Below are positions 2,457-29,638 of a stretch of 36,387 nt of DNA, in pieces. Location of the stretch: positions 1 to 36,387 of the forward strand of contig JAFUJY010000304.1 in NCBI GenBank assembly GCA_017467985.1, given 5' to 3'. The DNA comes from Bacillota bacterium (lineage in GTDB: Bacteria; Bacillota; Clostridia; Lachnospirales; Bianqueaceae). The notes below the pieces were generated by a model. The model was not told the origin of the DNA and made no database searches. It saw only the letters and a program-made list of their open reading frames with translations. Position numbers and translations under genes: made by a program. Each line of letters begins with the position of its first letter. Positions within the stretch are counted from its first letter, which is position 1.

Positions 2457-3614
2457 TTAGGCCACCTCACCTTCCGCGGCCGCCAAATTATGGGTGGTTG
2501 CCACACCTTCCTGACACAGTTCTCCATCTGGGAAAGCAATGTAGTCCTCTTCTGTCAGGCCGTCCAGAATCTCGTATGTATCCATGGCCATATTATACTC
2601 TCCCAAAAGCACCGTCCGCTTTTCCAGCTTATGGTCGTTTTCCGCCCACACGTAAGTACTGCCATCCTCATCATAGCATATGAAGGCGCTGCTGATGGAC
2701 ACACCGGTCGCTGCTTCTTCACCATTGTCCACTTCCATATACACATGCTGGCCCAGAATCAACCCTTCGGTGCTGTCCAATTCCACATAAAAGGGATACT
2801 TACTTGTGGAGGTCATTTCATCCACAACCTTACCATAATACATATCATAACCGTTGCCCTGGGAGGGATTCTCATAATCCACCAGTGTCACCGTCCCCAG
2901 CCAATACACACTCTCGTCCGTCCGAGAAACAATCTTCATGCGGGTGCCTTCCATAATGCCGCCACGCTGCAGCTCGCCAATGGTTCCCTGGATACGATAG
3001 GACCCAGCCTGCTGAATCACGATATACGCCAGAGGATTACCATAGTTGTCCGTTCCATTCTCATTTATGGACTGAATCCGCCCTGTTACCGGAGAATACA
3101 CAACCGCATTCTCCATAATGGACTCAGACTGGGCTACTGCATCCTCCTTGGCTGAAATATTCAGTTCTGCTTCTTTTAGTTCCACCTGCAGAGTCTGGAT
3201 CTGAATGGTATATTCCAGCTTGTCGTCGGAATCTGCATCCTCCCGATCCTCTTCCAAGTCCGCAATCTGCTCCTTATAGTTTTCAATCATAGCCCGCAGC
3301 TGATCAAGCTCCAACCGCTGTTTATCCAGCGTAAGCTGCAGCTGCTCCGTATCATAGGAAAACAGTTCCTGGCCCTCTGTCACATCATCACCGGCCTTCA
3401 CCAGCAACTCTCCCACAACCTTATCCACATCTTTGTGGACTTCTGCCACGTTTTCTGATACGACCATACCTGCGAAGCGATCTCCGGGTGCAATGCCGCC
3501 CAAATCCATCAGATCCGCCACGGACTGTACATACACCATACTTTCATCACTGCTGCATCCCGTCAGATTCAGCAGCAGGCATACCGCCAACACCAGTGCA
3601 AAAAACTTTTTCAT
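2457..3614 (-). CDS. Efflux adaptor (HlyD/MFP family) lipoprotein
   Basis: The track ORF runs to 3674, but MKKFFALVLAVCLLLNLTGCSS (lipobox LTGC) starts at 3614 behind AAGGGGGAA. It has coiled-coil repeats (LQLTLDKQRLELDQLRAMIENYKEQIADLEE) and a beta-barrel C-terminus. Confidence 0.85.
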   Translation of the reverse strand: MKKFFALVLAVCLLLNLTGCSSDESMVYVQSVADLMDLGGIAPGDRFAGMVVSENVAEVHKDVDKVVGELLVKAGDDVTEGQELFSYDTEQLQLTLDKQRLELDQLRAMIENYKEQIADLEEDREDADSDDKLEYTIQIQTLQVELKEAELNISAKEDAVAQSESIMENAVVYSPVTGRIQSINENGTDNYGNPLAYIVIQQAGSYRIQGTIGELQRGGIMEGTRMKIVSRTDESVYWLGTVTLVDYENPSQGNGYDMYYGKVVDEMTSTSKYPFYVELDSTEGLILGQHVYMEVDNGEEAATGVSISSAFICYDEDGSTYVWAENDHKLEKRTVLLGEYNMAMDTYEILDGLTEEDYIAFPDGELCQEGVATTHNLAAAEGEVA

Positions 3615-4797: not shown

Positions 4798-6017
4798 ATC
4801 ATCCAAATCGGCACAATGTAGTTATCCCGATCAATGGCCCCTAAGTCAGGTTTCATACAGATTATAGCTCCCTTGGAACGTGGCGTAGATGATTTGTCCA
4901 GCAGTTGAAATACTTTTATCAGTTCTGTCCCCGGATTCGACGTTTTCTTAATCTCAATTGGATTCAAGACTCCATCATGTTCCAGGACAATATCAATTTC
5001 CTTTGCATCTTTATCCCGATAATAATATATATACGGTTCTTTTCCACAGTTCAAATAAGTCTTTACAATTTCAGAAACCACATAGTTTTCTAAAACTGCA
5101 CCGTTCATCGCACCACTTTCCAAAGTCTGCGCACTACTCCATTTCGTCAAATAACAAACCAAACCGGTATCGTAAAAATATACTTTTGGTGTTTTCACAA
5201 GTCTCTTCAGCAAGTTGTTAGAATATGGATGGAGATAGAAAATAATCCCCAATGTCTCCAAAATTCCCAACCAATTCTTCACCTGAACCTGGCTGATATC
5301 AGCATCTCTTGCAATATCCGCTGCATTCAGCATCTGCCCGCATCTTGCAGCAACCGCCGTGATAAAATGCAAAAACTTCAACGAATCAATTGCATCAGAT
5401 AACTCTCTCACATCTCTCTCAATGTATGTGCTCAAATAACTGTTATAAAAAATCTGACTATTACTATTGACTCCACTTACAATTGCAGGCATCGATCCTT
5501 TGTAAATACGATTAAAAATCTCCCCTATATCCGCTTCTTTACGCCCCGCTTTTCTTAAAGATAATTTCTCCAAATCCACAGCAAAGGGTTCTGCGGCTCC
5601 GCCGTTAATCTCAGTTTGAGACAATGACGTCAAGGAGAGCAGCGCTACTCTACCCGCTAACGACTCCTGTACCCCTCTCATTAACTTAAAAACCTGTGAA
5701 CCAGTTAACCAAAATGCCCCCGCTTCATGGTATTTATCCACATATACCTTAATATAAGTAAATAACTCCGGCGCATATTGTACTTCATCTATTAAAATCG
5801 GCGGCTTATGCAGCTGCAAGAATAATTCCGGATCCTTCTTGGCAAGAGCTCTTTCATTTAAGTCATCCAGTGTCACATAGCTTCGATTTGTACCCTCCAT
5901 GAGCTTCTGAAGCATCGTTGTCTTTCCAACCTGTCTGGAACCAGTAACAAGAACCACCGGATATTCTTTTGTAACCTGACTTACCACATCTTCAAGGCTT
6001 CTCTTAATATAATTCAT
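4794..6017 (-). CDS. AAA-superfamily ATPase with C-terminal DUF4143-like region
   Basis: Walker A VLVTGSRQVGKTT and Walker B-like PILIDEVQ. I place the start at MNYIKR (6017), 5 nt behind GGAGG, rather than at the track start 6029. Confidence 0.8.
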   Translation of the reverse strand: MNYIKRSLEDVVSQVTKEYPVVLVTGSRQVGKTTMLQKLMEGTNRSYVTLDDLNERALAKKDPELFLQLHKPPILIDEVQYAPELFTYIKVYVDKYHEAGAFWLTGSQVFKLMRGVQESLAGRVALLSLTSLSQTEINGGAAEPFAVDLEKLSLRKAGRKEADIGEIFNRIYKGSMPAIVSGVNSNSQIFYNSYLSTYIERDVRELSDAIDSLKFLHFITAVAARCGQMLNAADIARDADISQVQVKNWLGILETLGIIFYLHPYSNNLLKRLVKTPKVYFYDTGLVCYLTKWSSAQTLESGAMNGAVLENYVVSEIVKTYLNCGKEPYIYYYRDKDAKEIDIVLEHDGVLNPIEIKKTSNPGTELIKVFQLLDKSSTPRSKGAIICMKPDLGAIDRDNYIVPIWMI

Positions 6018-23367: not shown

Positions 23368-24084
23368 ATGATCATCGAAATCCTCTACCCCGAAATTTGT
23401 AATCTATTTGGCGACATCGGTAATATCCAATATCTGCAGCACTGTCTGCCGGATGCTGAGTTTGTTCCCACTACTTTTGGTACTGAACCTCTGTTTGCTA
23501 CCGAGACTCCGGACTTTATTTACATGGGAACCGCTTCTGAGAAGAACCAGGAGAAAATCATTGCTATGCTGTCTCCCTATCGTGTTCGCTTAAAAGAACT
23601 GCTGGAGACCGGCGTCCCCATGCTGTTCACCGGTAATGCCGGCGAAATTCTTTTTGACTATATCGAGAACTGGGATGGTCGCAAGATCCCCGGTTTGGGC
23701 ATCGTTCCCTTCACCGCTAAGCGCTCCCAGTATACCCGTTATAACGGATTGACTCTGGCCACCTTCCACGATCAGTTCGATACTCTGGGCTTCCGCAGTC
23801 AGTTCACCTACTGGTATGGTGATAACTCTTCCTGCCCCTTTGTATCCTGTAAAAAAGGAATCGGAATGAACCCCGAATCCTCTCTGGAAGGCATCCACCT
23901 GCACAATACCATCATTACCGCTCAATTGGGCCCCATCCTGGTGAACAACCCCAAGCTGACCCGACATGTGCTGGACTCCATGGGCGCGGTTGATGCCCCC
24001 GTGGCTTTTGAAAAGGAAATCCAGGCAGCTTATGATGTACGAATGCAGGAGTTCTTAAATCCGAAAATCAAGTTCTCTATATGA
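23368..24084 (+). CDS. gatD: GatD-like (CobB/CobQ-type glutamine amidotransferase fold) partner of MurT, apparently lacking the catalytic Cys/His
   Basis: The start MIIEILYPEICNLFGDIGNIQYL follows AAGGAGGAGG, one nt after the murT stop. It is collinear with my recollection of S. aureus GatD. It reads LFTGNAGE where LTICGGYQ is expected and AQLGP where YLHGP is expected. Confidence 0.7.
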   Translation: MIIEILYPEICNLFGDIGNIQYLQHCLPDAEFVPTTFGTEPLFATETPDFIYMGTASEKNQEKIIAMLSPYRVRLKELLETGVPMLFTGNAGEILFDYIENWDGRKIPGLGIVPFTAKRSQYTRYNGLTLATFHDQFDTLGFRSQFTYWYGDNSSCPFVSCKKGIGMNPESSLEGIHLHNTIITAQLGPILVNNPKLTRHVLDSMGAVDAPVAFEKEIQAAYDVRMQEFLNPKIKFSI

Positions 24085-24342
24085 TAAAGACTGGATTGAT
24101 TTTAGAAGGGGGCGCCATGCGGGGCCCTCTTTACCGCCGGTGTCATCGCTGTTTTCATGGAAAACGGCATTACTTTTGACGGTGCCATCGGCGTCTCCGC
24201 CGGTGATGTTTTTGTCATTCGTCCGGATGCTCCTCTGCCCGTGGGCCGCACTGAAAATGATCCCACCAAGCTTGTTACAGCCTATAGCCTTGGTCGTTTC
24301 GCAGCCCTCAGGCAGCTGGATGCTTTACATGCTTTTTTATAA
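24081..24342 (+). pseudogene. Decayed patatin-family gene (frameshift plus large internal deletion)
   Basis: The ATG overlaps the gatD stop (ATGA). It encodes MIKTGLILEGGAMRG, then an extra C in GGGGCCC shifts the frame. The other frame continues LFTAGVIAVFMENGITFDGAIGVSAG and jumps directly to a C-terminal-like tail (VIRPDAPLPVGRTENDP), for about 87 codons in total. Confidence 0.7.
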
Positions 24343-24359
24343 TTTTTCTCATAAAGCTG

Positions 24360-24388
24360 TTGACAAATCAAAAAACCGGCGTTATAAT
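24360..24388 (+). promoter_or_regulatory. Consensus sigma-A promoter of the metQNI leader
   Basis: TTGACA (24360-24365), exactly 17 nt spacer, TATAAT (24383-24388). Confidence 0.8.
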
Positions 24389-24421
24389 CAAGCCAACCTG
24401 TAAGGAAAGGAGAACACGATC

Positions 24422-24541
24422 ATGATTAAGAGCTATACCACAACCGCTATGATGATGATGGAGATGTACATGTGCCGCATGTGCATGTTTTTTGATGCTT
24501 CTTTATCCGATAAGTTCTCCATCATCGAGCCCACTGCTTGA
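24422..24541 (+). CDS. 39-codon Met/Cys-rich leader peptide (attenuator ORF)
   Basis: SD AAGGAAAGGAGA, then MIKSYTTTAMMMMEMYMCRMCMFFDASLSDKFSIIEPTA. Codons 10-22 contain 8 AUG and 2 UGC. Confidence 0.75.
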   Translation: MIKSYTTTAMMMMEMYMCRMCMFFDASLSDKFSIIEPTA

Positions 24542-24571
24542 TTGATTATCCTGGCAGATCACATTGCTTAG

Positions 24572-24610
24572 AACCGGAAGACTTCATCGGAGTCTTCCGG
24601 TTTCTTTATT
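24572..24610 (+). terminator. Attenuator terminator downstream of the Met-rich leader ORF
   Basis: A 12-bp perfect stem AACCGGAAGACT (24572-24583) / AGTCTTCCGGTT (24591-24602) with a 7-nt loop, followed by a TTTCTTTATT tail. Confidence 0.85.
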
Positions 24611-24654
24611 ATACAGGGTTACAATGCATACAAACCTTAGAAAGGACCTACATC

Positions 24655-24711
24655 ATGGGCATTTATTTCGAAAAACTTGTCCGAGAAAACTTCCGTTTCG
24701 GACGAATGTGA
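24655..24711 (+). CDS. Conserved 18-codon upstream ORF, copy A (MGIYFEKLVRENFRFGRM)
   Basis: SD AAAGGA lies 8 nt upstream and the ORF ends 58 nt before the metQ ATG. A paralogous copy sits at 27286-27354, with only synonymous differences in the 14-codon core. Confidence 0.7.
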   Translation: MGIYFEKLVRENFRFGRM

Positions 24712-24769
24712 ATCACTCCTCTCACCACTGCATTCATATATGACTAACACAAAAAAGGAGATTATTATC

Positions 24770-25615
24770 ATGAAAAAATTATTCGCATTCGTACTGACCA
24801 TTATTATTGCTCTGACTACTCTGGCCGGCTGCTCCGGTTCCGACAAAATCACCATCGCTATCCCCAACGACACCACCAATGAGGCTCGCGCCCTGCTGCT
24901 GTTGGAGGATCTGGGTTATATCACCCTAAAAGAGGGTGCAGGCATCACCGCCACCATTCTGGATATCGCCCAGAACCCTTACGACATCCAGTTTAAAGAA
25001 GTAGAAGCGGCACAGCTGCCCAATGTTCTGCAAGACGTGGACTTTGCTGTAATCAACTCCAACTATGCCATTGATGCCGGTCTCAACCCCACCAGTGATG
25101 CTCTGGGCATTGAAGGTTCTTCTTCTGCCTACAGTAATATCCTGGCCGTAAAGGAAGGCAATGAAGACTCTGATATTATCAAAGCTCTGGCCGCCGCGCT
25201 CAAGAGTCAGCAGGTGGCTGATTTCATCGCCTCCGAATATGACGGCGCCGTGGTTTCTGTTGTGGATGAACCCACCGACGGCTATGATCCCACTCTCGAC
25301 TACTCCGCTCTGGCAGGTCAGACCGTTACCGTTGCTGCCTCTCCCGCACCCCACGCCGAGATTCTGGCCATCGTTAAAGAAATCCTGGCCGCTAAGGACA
25401 TCACCCTGGACATCAAAGAATTCACAGACTATGTTCAGCCCAACAACGTGGTAGAAAGCGGCGAAATCGACGCCAACTACTTCCAGCACGCCCCCTATCT
25501 GGATGATTTCAATGCCCAGAATGGTACCCACATCGTCTCTGCTGCTGTCATTCACGTGGAGCCCCTGGGCATCTATGGCGGCAAGCAGACATCTCTGGAT
25601 GCAATTAAAAAGTAA
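24770..25615 (+). CDS. metQ: Methionine ABC transporter substrate-binding lipoprotein (MetQ/NlpA family)
   Basis: The true start MKKLFAFVLTIIIALTTLAGCSGS (lipobox LAGC) follows AAAAAGGAG. The track ORF start at 24677 is an upstream extension. The body is NlpA-like. Confidence 0.9.
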   Translation: MKKLFAFVLTIIIALTTLAGCSGSDKITIAIPNDTTNEARALLLLEDLGYITLKEGAGITATILDIAQNPYDIQFKEVEAAQLPNVLQDVDFAVINSNYAIDAGLNPTSDALGIEGSSSAYSNILAVKEGNEDSDIIKALAAALKSQQVADFIASEYDGAVVSVVDEPTDGYDPTLDYSALAGQTVTVAASPAPHAEILAIVKEILAAKDITLDIKEFTDYVQPNNVVESGEIDANYFQHAPYLDDFNAQNGTHIVSAAVIHVEPLGIYGGKQTSLDAIKK

Positions 25616-25672: not shown

Positions 25673-26410
25673 ATGATTGAAATTAAGAACGTATTCAAAT
25701 CCTTTGATACTGCCGAAGGCACAGTAGAGGCATTAAAAAATGTATCCCTCTCCATCCCCGACGGCGACATCTTCGGAATCATCGGCATGAGCGGTGCCGG
25801 TAAAAGCACCCTGGTCCGATGTATTAACATGCTAGAACGACCGGACTCCGGCTCTGTTATTATTGATGGCCGCGACCTGACCACCCTCTCTGAGCTTCAG
25901 CTTCGCAGCATTCGACGGGAGGTCACCATGATTTTTCAGGGCTTTAACCTGCTTATGCAGCGTAACTGCCTGAAAAATGTATGCTTTCCCCTGGAACTTT
26001 CCGGTATGAAAAAAGCAGCAGCTACCCAGCGAGCCATGGAACTTCTGGACATTGTGGGTCTTAAGGACAAGGCCAAGGCCTATCCCGCCCAGCTTTCAGG
26101 TGGGCAGCAGCAGCGCGTAGCCATCGCCCGTGCCCTGGCCACCAACCCCAAGGTATTGCTGTGCGACGAAGCTACCAGTGCCCTGGACCCCAATACCACC
26201 AATTCCATTTTGGAACTCATCCGAAACATCAATCAACAACTGGGGATTACCGTCGTCATCATCACCCATCAAATGAGCGTGGTGGAAACCGTCTGCAAAC
26301 ACGTGGCCATTTTGGATGAAGGCCAGATTGTGGAGCAAGGTGACGTCACTGAAGTTTTCTCCCAACCCAAATCCGCCGCGGCCCGCCAGCTGTTGGCCCA
26401 TCGGAGGTAA
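25673..26410 (+). CDS. metN: Methionine ABC transporter ATP-binding protein, short form without a C-terminal NIL domain
   Basis: Walker A GMSGAGKST, signature LSGGQQQRVAIARAL, Walker B VLLCDEATSALD. The protein ends at 245 aa, right after the ABC core. Confidence 0.9.
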   Translation: MIEIKNVFKSFDTAEGTVEALKNVSLSIPDGDIFGIIGMSGAGKSTLVRCINMLERPDSGSVIIDGRDLTTLSELQLRSIRREVTMIFQGFNLLMQRNCLKNVCFPLELSGMKKAAATQRAMELLDIVGLKDKAKAYPAQLSGGQQQRVAIARALATNPKVLLCDEATSALDPNTTNSILELIRNINQQLGITVVIITHQMSVVETVCKHVAILDEGQIVEQGDVTEVFSQPKSAAARQLLAHRR

Positions 26411-26414
26411 TCCC

Positions 26415-27116
26415 ATGCTAGAAAAGTTATTTTCCAACGAAACCGTACAGGAAGCCCTGCAGGTGATCCAAACTCAATTCCCCCTTGCCATCTGGGAAAC
26501 CGTGTATGTCACCCTTCTTTCTTCTTTATTTGCTTTCATCATTGGCTTGCCCTTGGGCGTATTGCTGGTGGTAGGTGAAAAAGATGGTATCATGCCCCTG
26601 CCCACCTGGTTCATGCGCACACTTAACGTAATCATCAACCTTTTCCGTTCCATTCCCTTTTTAATTTTGATGATTCTCGTTTTTCCTTTGACCCGTTTTA
26701 TTGTAGGTACTGTAGTGGGAACCACCGCTACCATCGTCCCCCTGGTCATCGCCGCAGCTCCCTTTGTGGCCCGTCTAGCCGAAACCAGTCTGCGGGAACT
26801 GAACCCCAATATTATTGAAATGGCCCAGAGTATGGGCGCCTCTCCCCTGCAGATTATTATCAAAGTCATGATTCCTGAGAGCATTCCCTCTCTGATCTCC
26901 AACGCCACCACGGCCATCACCACCATTTTAGGCTACTCTGCCATGAGCGGTATCATCGGCGGCGGCGGTTTGGGCAACATTGCCATCAATTACGGTTATT
27001 ACCGTTACAAATATCTAATTATGCTAGCCGCAGTCATTCTTCTGATTTTGCTGGTACAATTATTCCAAAGCGTGGGGACCCGCCTGGCCACCCGCTCTGA
27101 CAAACGCTTGAAATAA
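26415..27116 (+). CDS. metI: Methionine ABC transporter permease
   Basis: The start MLEKLFSNE follows GGAGG, 4 nt after the metN stop (the track start at 26316 is an extension). It has multiple TM segments and an EAA-like loop MAQSMGASPLQIIIKVMIPES. Confidence 0.88.
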   Translation: MLEKLFSNETVQEALQVIQTQFPLAIWETVYVTLLSSLFAFIIGLPLGVLLVVGEKDGIMPLPTWFMRTLNVIINLFRSIPFLILMILVFPLTRFIVGTVVGTTATIVPLVIAAAPFVARLAETSLRELNPNIIEMAQSMGASPLQIIIKVMIPESIPSLISNATTAITTILGYSAMSGIIGGGGLGNIAINYGYYRYKYLIMLAAVILLILLVQLFQSVGTRLATRSDKRLK

Positions 27117-27205: not shown

Positions 27206-27270
27206 AATAATTACCTTTTGACAAAGTAGGTAATTATTGGTATAATGCATTTACCTACTAAACAAGTAGG
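27206..27270. promoter_or_regulatory. Nested inverted repeats overlapping the metY promoter (candidate repressor operator, possibly for the operon-encoded Rrf2 protein)
   Basis: IR1 is AATAATTACCT (27206-27216) / AGGTAATTATT (27228-27238) and brackets the -35 box. IR2 is AGTAGGTAA (27225-27233) / TTACCTACT (27251-27259) and brackets the -10 box. A third AGTAGG (27265-27270) forms CCTACT-AAACA-AGTAGG. Confidence 0.6.
27218..27246 (+). promoter_or_regulatory. Consensus extended -10 sigma-A promoter of the metY-cysK-nifSU-rrf2 operon
   Basis: TTGACA (27218-27223), 17 nt spacer, TGgTATAAT (TATAAT at 27241-27246). Confidence 0.8.
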
Positions 27271-27285
27271 CATGGAGGTGTAGCA

Positions 27286-27354
27286 ATGGGAAAGGATTTT
27301 GAAAAGCTCGTCAGAGAGAATTTCCGCTTCGGTCGAATGTGTCGATGTAAATAA
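27286..27354 (+). CDS. Conserved 22-codon upstream ORF, copy B (MGKDFEKLVRENFRFGRMCRCK)
   Basis: SD GGAGG lies 7 nt upstream and the ORF ends 56 nt before the metY ATG. It is a paralogue of 24655-24711, and its tail adds Cys-Arg-Cys-Lys after the shared GRM. Confidence 0.7.
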   Translation: MGKDFEKLVRENFRFGRMCRCK

Positions 27355-27410: not shown

Positions 27411-28709
27411 ATGTCTAACAATTATAAATTCGAAACACTTCAGCTTCATGTAGGTCAAGAAGAGGCAGATCCCGCAACAGATGCACGCGCCGTGCCGATT
27501 TATGCTACCACATCTTACGTATTTCATGACTCTGCCCATGCGGCAGCCCGCTTTGGCCTGACTGATGCCGGTAATATCTATGGCAGACTTACCAACTCTA
27601 CGCAGGATGTATTTGAAAAGCGCATTGCAGCCCTTGAGGGTGGCGTTGGGGCGTTGGCTCTTGCTTCGGGTGCGGCAGCAATTACTTATGTATTACAGGC
27701 TCTCGGGCAGAACGGCGGACATATCGTAGCCCAAAAGACGATCTACGGCGGAAGCTATAATCTGCTCGCACATACCCTTCCTAACTTTGGTATCACCGCC
27801 AGTTTTGTCAACATCCACGACCTTGCTCAGGTGGAGGCGGCGATCAAGGAGAATACGAGAGCACTCTATATTGAAACCCTCGGCAACCCCAACAGTGACA
27901 TTCCTGACATCGATGCTCTTGCAGAGCTCGCTCATAAGTACGGTCTTCCCCTTGTGGTTGACAACACCTTTGGTACGCCCTATCTCATCCGCCCTATCGA
28001 GCACGGTGCAGATATCGTCGTTCACTCCGCAACCAAGTTTATCGGCGGTCACGGAACGACCCTCGGCGGCGTAATCGTTGACTCAGGTAAGTTTGATTGG
28101 GCAGCATCGGACAAATATCCCGCTATTGCCGCTCCTAATCCTTCCTACCACGGTATATCCTTCGTCAAGGCGGCGGGTGCGGCAGCATTTGTCACCTATA
28201 TCCGCGCGATCCTGCTTCGTGACACGGGCGCATCCATTTCTCCCTTTGCGGCCTTCCTACTTTTGCAGGGAACCGAAACCTTATCCCTCCGGTTGGAACG
28301 CCACGCAGAAAATACCAAAAAGGCAGTAGAATTCCTTACAAAGCATCCACAGGTTGAGAAGGTCAATCATCCCTCCCTTGCAGACCACCCCGACCATGCG
28401 CTTTACCAGCAATATTTCCCCAACGGCGGTGCTTCCATCTTCACCTTTGAAATCAAGGGTGGCCAGGCAGAGGCACATAAGTTTATTGATAACCTCAAGA
28501 TCTTTTCACTTCTCGCCAATGTTGCGGACGTCAAAAGTCTTGTAATTCACCCCGCAACCACCACACACAGCCAGCTCTCCGAACAGGAGCTTTTAGATCA
28601 GGGGATCAAGCCAAACACCATTCGTCTTTCCATCGGAACGGAACATATCGATGATATTATTGCCGATCTGGAAAGAGGATTTGAGGCGGTAAAGAGGGCA
28701 GAATCATGA
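27411..28709 (+). CDS. metY: O-acetylhomoserine sulfhydrylase / aminocarboxypropyltransferase (PLP, Cys/Met metabolism family)
   Basis: [17 protein letters not shown] ... [12 protein letters not shown], and the PLP-lysine motif [11 protein letters not shown]. 432 aa. Confidence 0.9.
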
Positions 28710-29638
28710 GCAGAATATATACATCCGCAGATGAATTGATTGGAAAAACTCCCCTTTTGGAACTCACACATATGGAAAAGACCCTTGGACTGAAGGCAAG
28801 AATCCTGGCAAAGCTGGAATATTTTAATCCTGCAGGATCTGTCAAGGACAGAATCGCCAAGGCGATGATCGAAGACGCGGAAGCCTCGAACAAGCTTACC
28901 CCGGGCTCGGTCATCATTGAACCTACCTCGGGTAATACCGGCATCGGACTTGCATCAGTTGCCACCGCTAGGGGATACCGTGTGATACTGATAATGCCCG
29001 AAACCATGTCAGTGGAGCGCAGACAGCTTATGAAAGCCTACGGTGCAGAGCTTGTGCTTACCGAGGGTGCGAAAGGAATGAAGGGCGCAATTGCCAAGGC
29101 CGAAGAACTGGCAGCAGAAATTCCCAACAGCTTCATTCCCGGTCAGTTTGTCAATCCTGCGAACCCCCGGGCCCATCGTGAAACCACAGGTCCTGAAATT
29201 TACGAGGATACTGATGGCGATGTGGATATTTTCGTTGCAGGTGTTGGCACAGGAGGTACGATCACAGGCGTTGGTGAATATCTGAAATCCAGAAAGCCCG
29301 ACATAGAGATCGTCGCCGTTGAGCCGGCAACCTCTGCAGTTCTATCCACAGGTGTTGCCGGAGCCCATAAGATTCAAGGTATTGGTGCAGGCTTTATTCC
29401 TGACGTACTGAATACCCAAATCTATAACGAGATCATCACCGTCCAAAACGAGGATGCTTTTGCCACGGGTAAACTGATTGGTAAGAGCGAAGGCATACTT
29501 GTGGGAATTTCCTCGGGCGCTGCGGCCTATGCGGCGATCGAGCTTGCCAAGCGTTCCGAAAATGAAGGAAAGACTATTGTTGTTCTGCTCCCCGACACGG
29601 GTGACAGATATTTATCCACACCGCTGTTTGCTGACTAA
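28706..29638 (+). CDS. cysK: Cysteine synthase A (O-acetylserine sulfhydrylase)
   Basis: [10 protein letters not shown] (PLP Lys), [10 protein letters not shown] and GTGGTITG. There is a 4-nt ATGA overlap with metY. Confidence 0.92.

Follow-up and report, generated by a model that had tools for sequence, protein, structure and literature searches.

A candidate two-stage, ribosome-read sensor of methionine and cysteine in the metQNI leader of a Clostridia genome

RESULTS

A Met- and Cys-codon leader ORF lies between a consensus promoter and metQNI

We analyzed, entirely by computation, a 36,387-nucleotide (nt) stretch of DNA from a Bacillota bacterium of the class Clostridia (GenBank assembly GCA_017467985.1, contig JAFUJY010000304.1), here called the window, and focus on the leader that precedes its metQNI genes. 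An earlier, sequence-only reading of this DNA had proposed that the leader is an attenuator of the trp/his/leu type keyed to Met and Cys codons. The genes and the promoter-proximal part of the leader are arranged as follows.

24360-24388, + strand: sigma-70-type promoter, with TTGACA (24360-24365), a 17-nt spacer, and TATAAT (24383-24388); 12 of 12 consensus positions
24402-24415, + strand: Shine-Dalgarno (SD) region of the leader open reading frame (ORF), AAGGAAAGGAGAAC, read from the sequence
24422-24541, + strand: leader ORF of 39 codons, MIKSYTTTAMMMMEMYMCRMCMFFDASLSDKFSIIEPTA and then a stop, by translation
24449-24487, + strand: regulatory codon block, codons 10-22, with 8 AUG and 2 UGC by codon count
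24454-24464, + strand: segment 1, GAUGAUGGAGA, made of Met/Glu codons; by complementarity, the 5' strand of the anti-antiterminator
24464-24486, + strand: hairpin internal to the Met-Cys-Met codons (AUGUACAUGUG...CAUGUGCAU), predicted at -13.0 kcal/mol
24506-24526, + strand: segment 2, UCCGAUAAGUUCUCCAUCAUC, which by complementarity can pair with segment 1, segment 3, or the leader SD
24534-24557, + strand: weak hairpin CUGC...GCAG in the predicted fold, with the leader stop codon (24539-24541) in its loop
24571-24613, + strand: intrinsic terminator with a U-rich tail, arms 24571-24585 and 24589-24603
24770-25615, + strand: metQ (PF03180; MetQ/NlpA lipoprotein in NCBIfam)
25673-26410, + strand: metN, ABC ATPase (ABC_tran)
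26412-27116, + strand: metI, permease (BPD_transp_1)

The promoter, the SD, and the 39-codon ORF with its 8 AUG and 2 UGC codons lie where the sequence-only reading had placed them. The GGAG of the leader SD (24409-24412) is followed, 9 nt further on, by the ATG at 24422, and both the SD and the ATG are conserved among 33 aligned leaders, in which AAAGGAGAAC of the SD region is near-invariant. At the Met frequency of the window (3.1%), at least 8 Met in 13 codons has a probability of ~9e-10, and a scan of the whole window in six frames found a Met-dense stretch of this kind in the leader ORF only. The 226-nt leader folds at -77 kcal/mol, with a z-score of -4.9 relative to dinucleotide shuffles. 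On these three grounds, a chance origin of the Met-codon leader is excluded.

The leader RNA can form mutually exclusive helices

Segment 1, GAUGAUGGAGA, is perfectly complementary over 11 bp to UCUCCAUCAUC (24516-24526), with a duplex energy of -19.1 kcal/mol, just as the earlier reading had it. The competing antiterminator, in which 24506-24520 pairs with 24576-24591, likewise agrees with the earlier description (14 pairs, among them one G-U, with one bulge and one C-A mismatch) and has a duplex energy of -17.1 kcal/mol; its second strand lies within the terminator, where it doubles as antiterminator segment 3. The terminator and its U tract are present as well, but the stem, which had been put at 12 bp, is 15 bp long (3-nt loop, -23.1 kcal/mol), and the U tract UUUCUUUAUU begins at 24601, within the final stem pairs, a trivial offset from the earlier position. 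Helix energies of -19, -17, and -23 kcal/mol are in the same range as those of the classical trp leader.

A third partner of segment 2 had been overlooked. The leader SD GGAGAAC (24409-24415) is complementary to GUUCUCC (24514-24520) in segment 2, at -12.2 kcal/mol, and both partners are near-invariant in the leader family. This pairing may couple initiation of leader translation to the switch.

We also folded the window leader under constraint, with the RNA emerged to position 24593 and the ribosome footprints masked. The 1:2, 2:3, and 3:4 helices are mutually exclusive, as had been proposed. The antiterminator was the minimum free energy (MFE) structure with a ribosome stalled at Met22, and again with a ribosome on the Met run plus a second ribosome at the start region. 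With a ribosome over segment 2, the antiterminator was unable to form. Once the terminator is complete it is always favored (-61.0 versus -43.1 kcal/mol), so the switch must be kinetic, as is also true of the classical trp leader.

The Met-codon run is conserved and falls outside known RNA families

Met genes in Firmicutes are usually under the control of S-box (SAM-I, for S-adenosylmethionine) riboswitches or Met T-boxes. An Rfam 15 scan of the whole window gave zero matches at the gathering score, SAM riboswitches and T-box included, and at E<=10 the region 24300-24800 drew only meaningless matches, such as a plant microRNA and a small nucleolar RNA. The Met leaders of 12 related loci also gave zero Rfam matches. 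The same scan detected a genuine T-box (93.3 bits) at 3317-3569 of locus L043 (L numbers denote loci), ~2 kb upstream of the Met leader at 5283-5518 of that locus. This hit shows that the scan works, and therefore also that genomes with the Met leader system use T-boxes for other genes. From these searches we take the leader not to be an S-box, another SAM riboswitch, or a T-box; the earlier reading had recognized neither class by eye.

The conservation of the leader was examined among eight contigs encoding MetQ homologues, which carry eight distinct leaders including that of the window. Because these contigs were retrieved by protein identity alone, the sample is unbiased as to the leader. 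A Met-rich ORF followed by a terminator is found in seven of the eight, so the AUG run on which the earlier proposal hinged is kept among orthologous metQ leaders. The leader peptides include MKKITAMMMEMCMCGRMCMAFHTPISDMFSETEM in L001, MTKLAFSVAMMTEMCMLTCCMCMAFRAFISDMFSVLMAKRISA in L005, and MKQQPVAMMMEMYMRCCMCMAFRASVSGRFSISKKLQCAA in L161. In L163 the peptide is MKKAKKLYAAQEMKMAMMMYMRAMGMRMRFDAQISDRSSSSSKELETA, with 9 Met codons in another nucleotide context and without Cys codons, which argues that the Met codons themselves are conserved rather than merely the sequence.

The family extends well beyond these orthologs. In metagenomes, 32 loci matched a nucleotide pattern derived from the leader; most are a human-gut variant, MKRFVSSSMMMEMCMPMCMCMFSCAHNSHLLSQNA plus terminator, upstream of metQNI. 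A profile of 23 leader peptides matched 265 protein clusters of 38 to 69 amino acids (aa), which contain no Pfam domain and whose source name, where there is one, is "hypothetical protein." Leaders of the family hold on average 6.7 Met and 4.3 Cys codons, and the peptide consensus is MKK..T.MMMEMCMW.C.MCMTFCA.[LI]SD.[FL]S.

One alternative is that the leader is a ligand- or factor-binding RNA acting through this terminator and antiterminator, be it an unrecognized SAM or Met riboswitch or a protein-binding element, and that the Met-rich ORF is incidental. High conservation of the nucleotide sequence over ~240 nt would fit such an RNA, as would the usual riboswitch control of such genes in Firmicutes, and the Met-Cys-Met and stop-codon hairpins are readable as aptamer elements. 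However, no Rfam family matches even at E<=10, and what is conserved at the core is a series of in-frame AUG/UGC codons, preceded by an SD and a start codon that are conserved too. The Met codons themselves form segment 1, and three divergent loci (L163, L162, and L129) change the context yet keep the Met run, the frame, and the stop just before the terminator. We regard a ligand- or factor-binding RNA as very unlikely.

Terminator and antiterminator covary across the leader family

Covariation was assessed in an alignment of 33 leaders (A1) and counted per sequence, not per evolutionary event. The RNAalifold consensus of A1 gives the terminator and the Met-Cys-Met hairpin. In the terminator (3:4), 87% of alignment cells are paired, versus 36-57% when the strands are slid, with 9 compensatory pairs and a covariation score reached by none of 500 shuffles. 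The antiterminator in its family register (6 + 5 bp) is 92.5% paired (30-65% when slid), with 3 compensatory pairs; in the register seen in the window it is 79% paired (35-61% when slid), with 6 compensatory pairs. Neither score was reached in 500 shuffles. Across the family, the first helix of the window register, UCCGAU:AUCGGA, is 94% paired and the second half 69%. Compensatory cases in the antiterminator are UCCGGC:GUCGGA (L033, L041, and L068) and UUCGAU:AUCGAA (L109).

Individual nucleotides point the same way. AUCGGA, which spans the terminator loop and the beginning of the 3' arm, is near-invariant even though the terminator imposes no constraint there. UCCGAU and UCUCC of segment 2 are near-invariant at the nucleotide level, with Ser, Asp, and Ser codons fixed as UCC, GAU, and UCC; since synonymous codons would be available, this fixation indicates a constraint at the RNA level.

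Helix 1:2 was tested by per-sequence duplex energies and by a helix defined on L003, because MAFFT placed the extra AUG of the window one codon out of register, which makes a column test of the exact window helix invalid. In the family, helix 1:2 is 77.6% paired (40-52% when slid), with 9 compensatory pairs but a covariation score no higher than that of shuffles. In most relatives it is much longer than in the window, joining AUGAUGGAGAUGUGCAUGUGG and UCCGAUGUACUCUCCAU at -15 to -26 kcal/mol.

The hairpin around the leader stop codon takes the form CCGCC-N9-GGCGG in the family (A1 columns 213-217 with 227-231) and is 79.6% paired. It also covaries, with AU in 9 sequences and CG in 9 at one pair and a score that 0 of 500 shuffles reach. 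This hairpin would shorten the loop that the antiterminator closes, and it could serve as a pause site or bring segments 2 and 3 together.

These constraints bear on a second alternative, in which the 39-codon ORF encodes a functional Met/Cys-rich small peptide, metal-binding or redox active, and the hairpin is merely its terminator. The ORF is annotated as a gene in public assemblies, the family has the 265 clusters of 38-69 aa described above, and Met/Cys-rich motifs can bind Cu(I). Such a peptide would leave unexplained why the ORF is always directly upstream of Met/Cys genes on the same strand, why UCC, GAU, and UCUCC are fixed as nucleotides in its C-terminal half, and why that half is complementary to both the Met-codon run and the terminator, whereas the length and the non-Met residues of the peptide vary freely and no Pfam domain matches. 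We consider a functional peptide highly improbable.

A second, peptide-conserved uORF follows the terminator

Between the terminator and metQ lies a second upstream ORF (uORF), missed by the earlier reading, which has a paralogous copy before the next operon in the window.

24655-24711, + strand: second uORF of 18 codons, MGIYFEKLVRENFRFGRM and then a stop, between the terminator and metQ
24716-24723, + strand: CUCCUCUC, a possible anti-SD just past the uORF stop, from the sequence; same arrangement in L017, L078, and L129
24755-24761, + strand: metQ SD, AAGGAGA, from the sequence
27218-27354, + strand: metY-cysK leader, without Met-rich ORF or terminator, paralogous to the metQ uORF leader
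27411-28709: O-acetylhomoserine sulfhydrylase gene (metY)
28706-29638: gene for CysK, downstream of metY

The uORF follows the pattern M-x3-FEKLVR[A/E]NFRFGR-M and then either stops or continues into a Cys-rich tail. In the metQ leader, Arg17 is CGA (24703-24705) and Met18 is AUG (24706-24708). The metY-cysK leader has its own 12/12 promoter (27218-27246), a 5' hairpin (27254-27271), and the uORF MGKDFEKLVRENFRFGRMCRCK with its stop (27286-27354), in which CGA-AUG lies at 27334-27339. Within codons 5-18, the two copies in the window are distinguished by 8 substitutions, every one of them synonymous (P ~1.5e-6). Judged by its sequence, the second uORF is under selection at the level of the peptide.

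The uORF is present in all eight of the unbiased metQ leaders, in L163 with conservative replacements (FEKLLRANYRFGRM). Searched as a degenerate DNA pattern, E[KE]LVRxNFRFGR was found at a minimum of 120 loci in 596 Gb, against ~0.07 expected. The counts that follow in this section are among the matches listed. Nearly all of the loci are from metagenome-assembled genomes (MAGs) of gut Clostridia, and one, L099, is from a cultured strain, Mediterraneibacter agrestimuris DSM 111629, in which the uORF occurs without the Met-rich leader. At 130 places, the gene after the uORF encodes MetY (88), MetQ (21), CysK (1), or MetN (1); in 8 the first gene is unassigned, and 11 are without a gene within the locus. 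The 8 unassigned places precede a sulfate transporter (2), NifS, NifU-MetF-MetH, a sulfonate-type transporter, or an overlooked MetY or MetQ. The Met-rich leader described above accompanies the uORF at 45 of the 130 places.

Codon statistics were drawn from 115 unique uORFs in L001-L128. Several features outside the search pattern are conserved: a start codon 4 codons before Phe5, Phe5 itself (111/115), Met18 (112/115), and CGA as the codon of Arg17 (112/115, whereas CGA makes up 8.5% of Arg codons in the genes of the window). Codon 19 is UGY in 72 uORFs and UGA in 28. A common tail reads M-C-R-C, in which CGA is again the usual codon for the second Arg, ahead of a Cys codon. CGA-AUG may be an inhibitory codon pair that sensitizes the sensor codon. 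Two uORFs end in GRC and a stop, so that the sensor position is Cys (L030, 4411-4468; L127, minus strand, MKEFFEKLVRANFRFGRC and stop), and in each case the operon that follows is sbp-cysT-cysW, a sulfate ABC transporter by NCBIfam assignment.

Some variant loci deserve mention. At 1411-1674 of L129, a common human-gut variant of the metQNI leader from a human gut metagenome, the Met-rich ORF and terminator are kept while the second uORF encodes an unrelated peptide, MKKLYRLYTTGWRMCPPGTDR and stop, that holds CGA-AUG-UGU and is followed by CCUCC. The uORF also occurs on MAG contigs from outside the Clostridia (L021, L044, and L046, Spirochaetaceae/Treponema; L066, Paludibacteraceae; L105, Succinatimonas), which could reflect horizontal transfer or mis-binning. 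Directly downstream of the -10 box, at 27254-27271 of the window and at many loci (L066, L108, L036, and L050, for example), is an inverted repeat, ACCUAC-N5-GUAGG(U). It stands at the 5' end of the transcript and overlaps the AGGU ribosome-binding site (RBS) of the uORF; it could stabilize the 5' end as a hairpin, mask the RBS of the uORF, or act as an operator in the DNA.

A third alternative is that metQNI is controlled mainly by this uORF, by a repressor acting near the promoter, or by both, with the Met-rich ORF and terminator an accessory or a constitutive damper insensitive to Met. In keeping with this, the uORF stands alone at metY-cysK in the window, at 85 of the 130 places among the matches listed, and at metQ of L007, and the inverted repeat after the -10 box occupies an operator-like position in many leaders. 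Yet a conserved antiterminator over the leader ORF and an extreme enrichment in Met codons would be purposeless in a constitutive terminator, and the Met-rich module also occurs together with a quite different second uORF, in L129. Control of this kind, with stage 1 as a bystander, strikes us as unlikely.

The uORF is predicted to sequester the SD of the main gene

Across 74 unique leaders, the core of the main-gene SD is predicted to be paired (median P of 0.90), and its partner is uORF codons 10-18 (median fraction, 0.98). The pairing drops to 0.42 when uORF nt 34-66 are masked, the footprint of a ribosome stalled with P-site CGA and A-site AUG, and shuffling the uORF lowers it to 0.40. The SD region of most metY leaders is CGAAAGGAAAU, complementary to the N-F-R-F-G codons AAUUUCCGUUUCG; leaders with a GGAG-type SD (metQ of the window, L017, L078, and L129) have instead a CUCCU-type anti-SD just past the uORF stop. 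An RBS-sequestering helix with one strand inside the footprint of the stalled ribosome is thus seen across the 74 leaders, although the two copies in the window are weaker.

Pairing cannot account for the fixed CGA at Arg17, because the pairing partner would be free to co-vary. We infer that a P-site CGA delays the reading of the sensor codon. The stall site assumed here is deduced from the near-invariant CGA-AUG and from the exchange of Met for Cys before sulfate-uptake genes.

A fourth alternative concerns the nature of the signal: the second uORF could sense free methionine or SAM through a TnaC- or SpeFL-like action of its nascent peptide in the ribosome tunnel, and not tRNA charging. This would suit the conservation of the 13 residues FEKLVRxNFRFGR as a peptide with synonymous variation, and about one-quarter of the uORFs among the matches listed stop right after Met18, mostly at UGA, as in TnaC. 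The identity of the sensor codon speaks for tRNA charging: the codon after GR switches to Cys before sulfate-uptake genes, most listed uORFs go on with Cys codons that are again preceded by CGA, and L129 keeps CGA-AUG-UGU with an unrelated peptide. Moreover, if the stall opens the SD, arrest by a ligand would induce the genes in times of Met abundance, the opposite of what uptake and biosynthesis genes call for. Sensing by the nascent peptide is therefore an unlikely, if conceivable, reading of the second uORF.

A two-stage model for the metQNI leader

We propose that the metQNI leader is probably a two-stage sensor of Met (and Cys) read by ribosomes, a transcription attenuator followed by a translational attenuator. 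The first stage (24360-24613) would be a classical leader-peptide transcription attenuator. It has an SD-bearing ORF after the promoter, a cluster of cognate codons, a terminator, and a mutually exclusive antiterminator, and the attenuation of trp/his/leu type first suggested for it is supported by its retention in seven of eight orthologous metQ leaders and by the covariation of terminator and antiterminator. With Met-tRNA and Cys-tRNA plentiful, the ribosome would cross the codon block and segment 2 while polymerase makes segments 3 and 4, the 15-bp terminator would form, and transcription would halt before metQ; after the ribosome departs, either segment 1 or the leader SD would capture segment 2. 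Under a shortage of charged tRNA-Met or tRNA-Cys, the ribosome would stall on the AUG/UGC block, which is segment 1. That stall would free segment 2 (UCCGAU...UCUCC) to pair with segment 3 (GGAAGA...AUCGGA), which takes in the terminator's 5' arm and loop and the very start of the 3' arm; once this is paired, no terminator could form and polymerase would read through.

The second stage (24655-24769) would act on read-through transcripts, which carry the 18-codon uORF. The 3' half of the uORF and the sequence just downstream are predicted to base-pair with the main-gene SD. A ribosome whose P site is occupied by CGA, and whose A site by the sole AUG sensor codon, would keep that helix open, allowing metQ to be translated. 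Stalling upon Met/Cys limitation, the direction of regulation, and the roles of the nascent peptide and the CGA codon are what we infer from this architecture.

Several observations weigh against the two-stage model or parts of it. For stage 1, masking the Met run alone leads segment 2 to pair with the leader SD and not with segment 3 in the equilibrium fold, so the model requires kinetics or a second, initiating ribosome. The 2:3 register of the window is one base off the family consensus. Covariation in helix 1:2 does not exceed that of shuffles (129 of 500 reach its score), because both strands are near-invariant, and its duplex energy beats shuffles (z<=-1.5) in only ~17 of 31 leaders; of the three helices that the earlier reading had proposed to test for covariation, the terminator and the antiterminator show it, whereas helix 1:2 keeps its complementarity without covariation above the shuffled level. 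A close orthologue, L007, is without the whole stage-1 module. For stage 2, sequestration of the SD is moderate at metQ of the window (P of 0.71, falling to 0.39 under the mask) and at its other leader, metY-cysK (0.35-0.67, falling to 0.22-0.27), and a single sensor codon would be an unusually weak sensor of starvation. The genome loci were found with a pattern that fixes 11 residues, so conservation of those residues there is by construction; independent evidence for the uORF is the unbiased metQ sample, the features outside the pattern, and the excess over chance. Finally, the association of GRC-ending uORFs with sulfate uptake rests on two closely related loci.

A broader generalization of the two-stage model can be put forward only tentatively, and we lean slightly against it: gut Clostridia may have a Met/Cys "ribulon," a set of sulfur amino-acid operons under the control of ribosomes, and not of SAM riboswitches or T-boxes, whose core is a new type of single-codon sensor, the 18-codon uORF. 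In it, FEKLVRxNFRFGR and the P-site CGA would make A-site decoding rate-limiting, the pause would open the SD helix, and the Met/Cys-codon attenuator would be an optional upstream stage. The sensor codon in such a regulon would be AUG for Met genes and UGU for sulfate uptake.

Comparison with known systems

Searches of the full-text literature, including searches with the peptide strings, brought up neither a Met-specific leader peptide nor the second-uORF peptide; the nearest neighbors were the mycobacterial poly-Cys small ORFs (sORFs) and the Bacillus His leader. The Met specificity appears undescribed, as does the second sensor uORF to which the leader is joined in tandem, and the clade is one regarded as dependent on riboswitches and T-boxes.

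The first stage resembles the trp, his, leu, thr, ilvGMEDA, and pheA attenuators of Proteobacteria in having a promoter-proximal ORF with the cognate codons inside segment 1. In the window it also shares with them the mutually exclusive 1:2, 2:3, and 3:4 helices with an intrinsic terminator at the end. Unlike these, the window leader is keyed to Met with Cys and is found in Clostridia, its ORF spans segment 2 and stops ~30 nt before the terminator, and it has a stop-codon hairpin, an SD:segment-2 pairing, and a tandem sensor uORF.

Within the Firmicutes, a His leader peptide upstream of hisS/hisZ paralogues in Bacilli is a regular attenuator that replaces a T-box (Naville & Gautheret 2010, PMC2965389). 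The window leader would likewise be a leader-peptide attenuator, but the two differ in amino acid, genes, and clade and have no sequence relationship, and no second uORF is described for the Bacilli leader. Ribosome sensing of the supply of a sulfur amino acid on a short upstream ORF would be shared with actinobacteria: at the leaderless poly-Cys sORFs of mycobacteria, stalling of the ribosome keeps a helix from sequestering the downstream RBS (Canestrari et al., bioRxiv 10.1101/834739), and leader ORFs with Cys codons occur at actinobacterial cys operons (PMC1262725). Opening of an RBS helix is likewise what we propose for the FEKLVR...GRM uORF. The mycobacterial sORFs, however, have Cys-codon tracts, are leaderless, and lack a conserved peptide, whereas stage 1 of the window system uses a terminator, and in its stage 2 a conserved peptide of 13 residues and a fixed CGA precede one AUG, which 1-2 UGY may accompany.

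S-box and Met T-box leaders have the same targets (metQNI, metY, cysK, and metF/metH), the same leader position, and the same terminator/antiterminator readout, but their sensor is a SAM aptamer or pairing with uncharged tRNA, whereas that of the window leader would be a translated ORF. As in the ermC/ermB and cat/cmlA leaders, in which the nascent peptide sometimes matters, a stalled ribosome would unmask a downstream SD; those leaders respond to ribosome-bound antibiotics, whereas the signal here is likely the supply of Met/Cys-tRNA, and the peptide is unrelated.

The Met-codon leader appears to do the work of S-boxes and T-boxes across a large section of the gut microbiota, most of it uncultured. 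Carriers include Oscillospiraceae, Lachnospiraceae, Acutalibacteraceae, Christensenella, and Anaerovoracaceae, in which the ORF is at present called "hypothetical protein" or left unannotated. For annotators, it could flag Met/Cys regulons in gut metagenomes. The two elements in tandem also provide a compact natural system for studying how one hungry codon can become a sensor and whether nascent-peptide and codon-pair effects cooperate.

Regulated genes and neighboring sequence

MetQ homologues of ~80% identity come from Oscillospiraceae and Clostridia MAGs. The MetN of the window is 245 aa long and without a C-terminal NIL domain; its orthologue in L001 has 338 aa, with ABC_tran and NIL. The NIL domain of Escherichia coli MetN mediates inhibition by methionine.

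Two further candidate elements were rejected. TACAAT at 24621-24626 might have marked a second promoter between the terminator and the uORF, but it is without an acceptable -35 element and absent from the output of the promoter scan. A hairpin within the FRFG codons of the uORF (CGN...NCG) was set aside as well, its third positions showing no covariation by eye.

Just 5' of the leader promoter, two short overlapping ORFs at 24081-24342 look like remnants of one degraded gene. One of them matches DUF6363 (E of 3e-11), and the other starts with MIKTGLILEGGAMRG, which we take to be a patatin-like N terminus.

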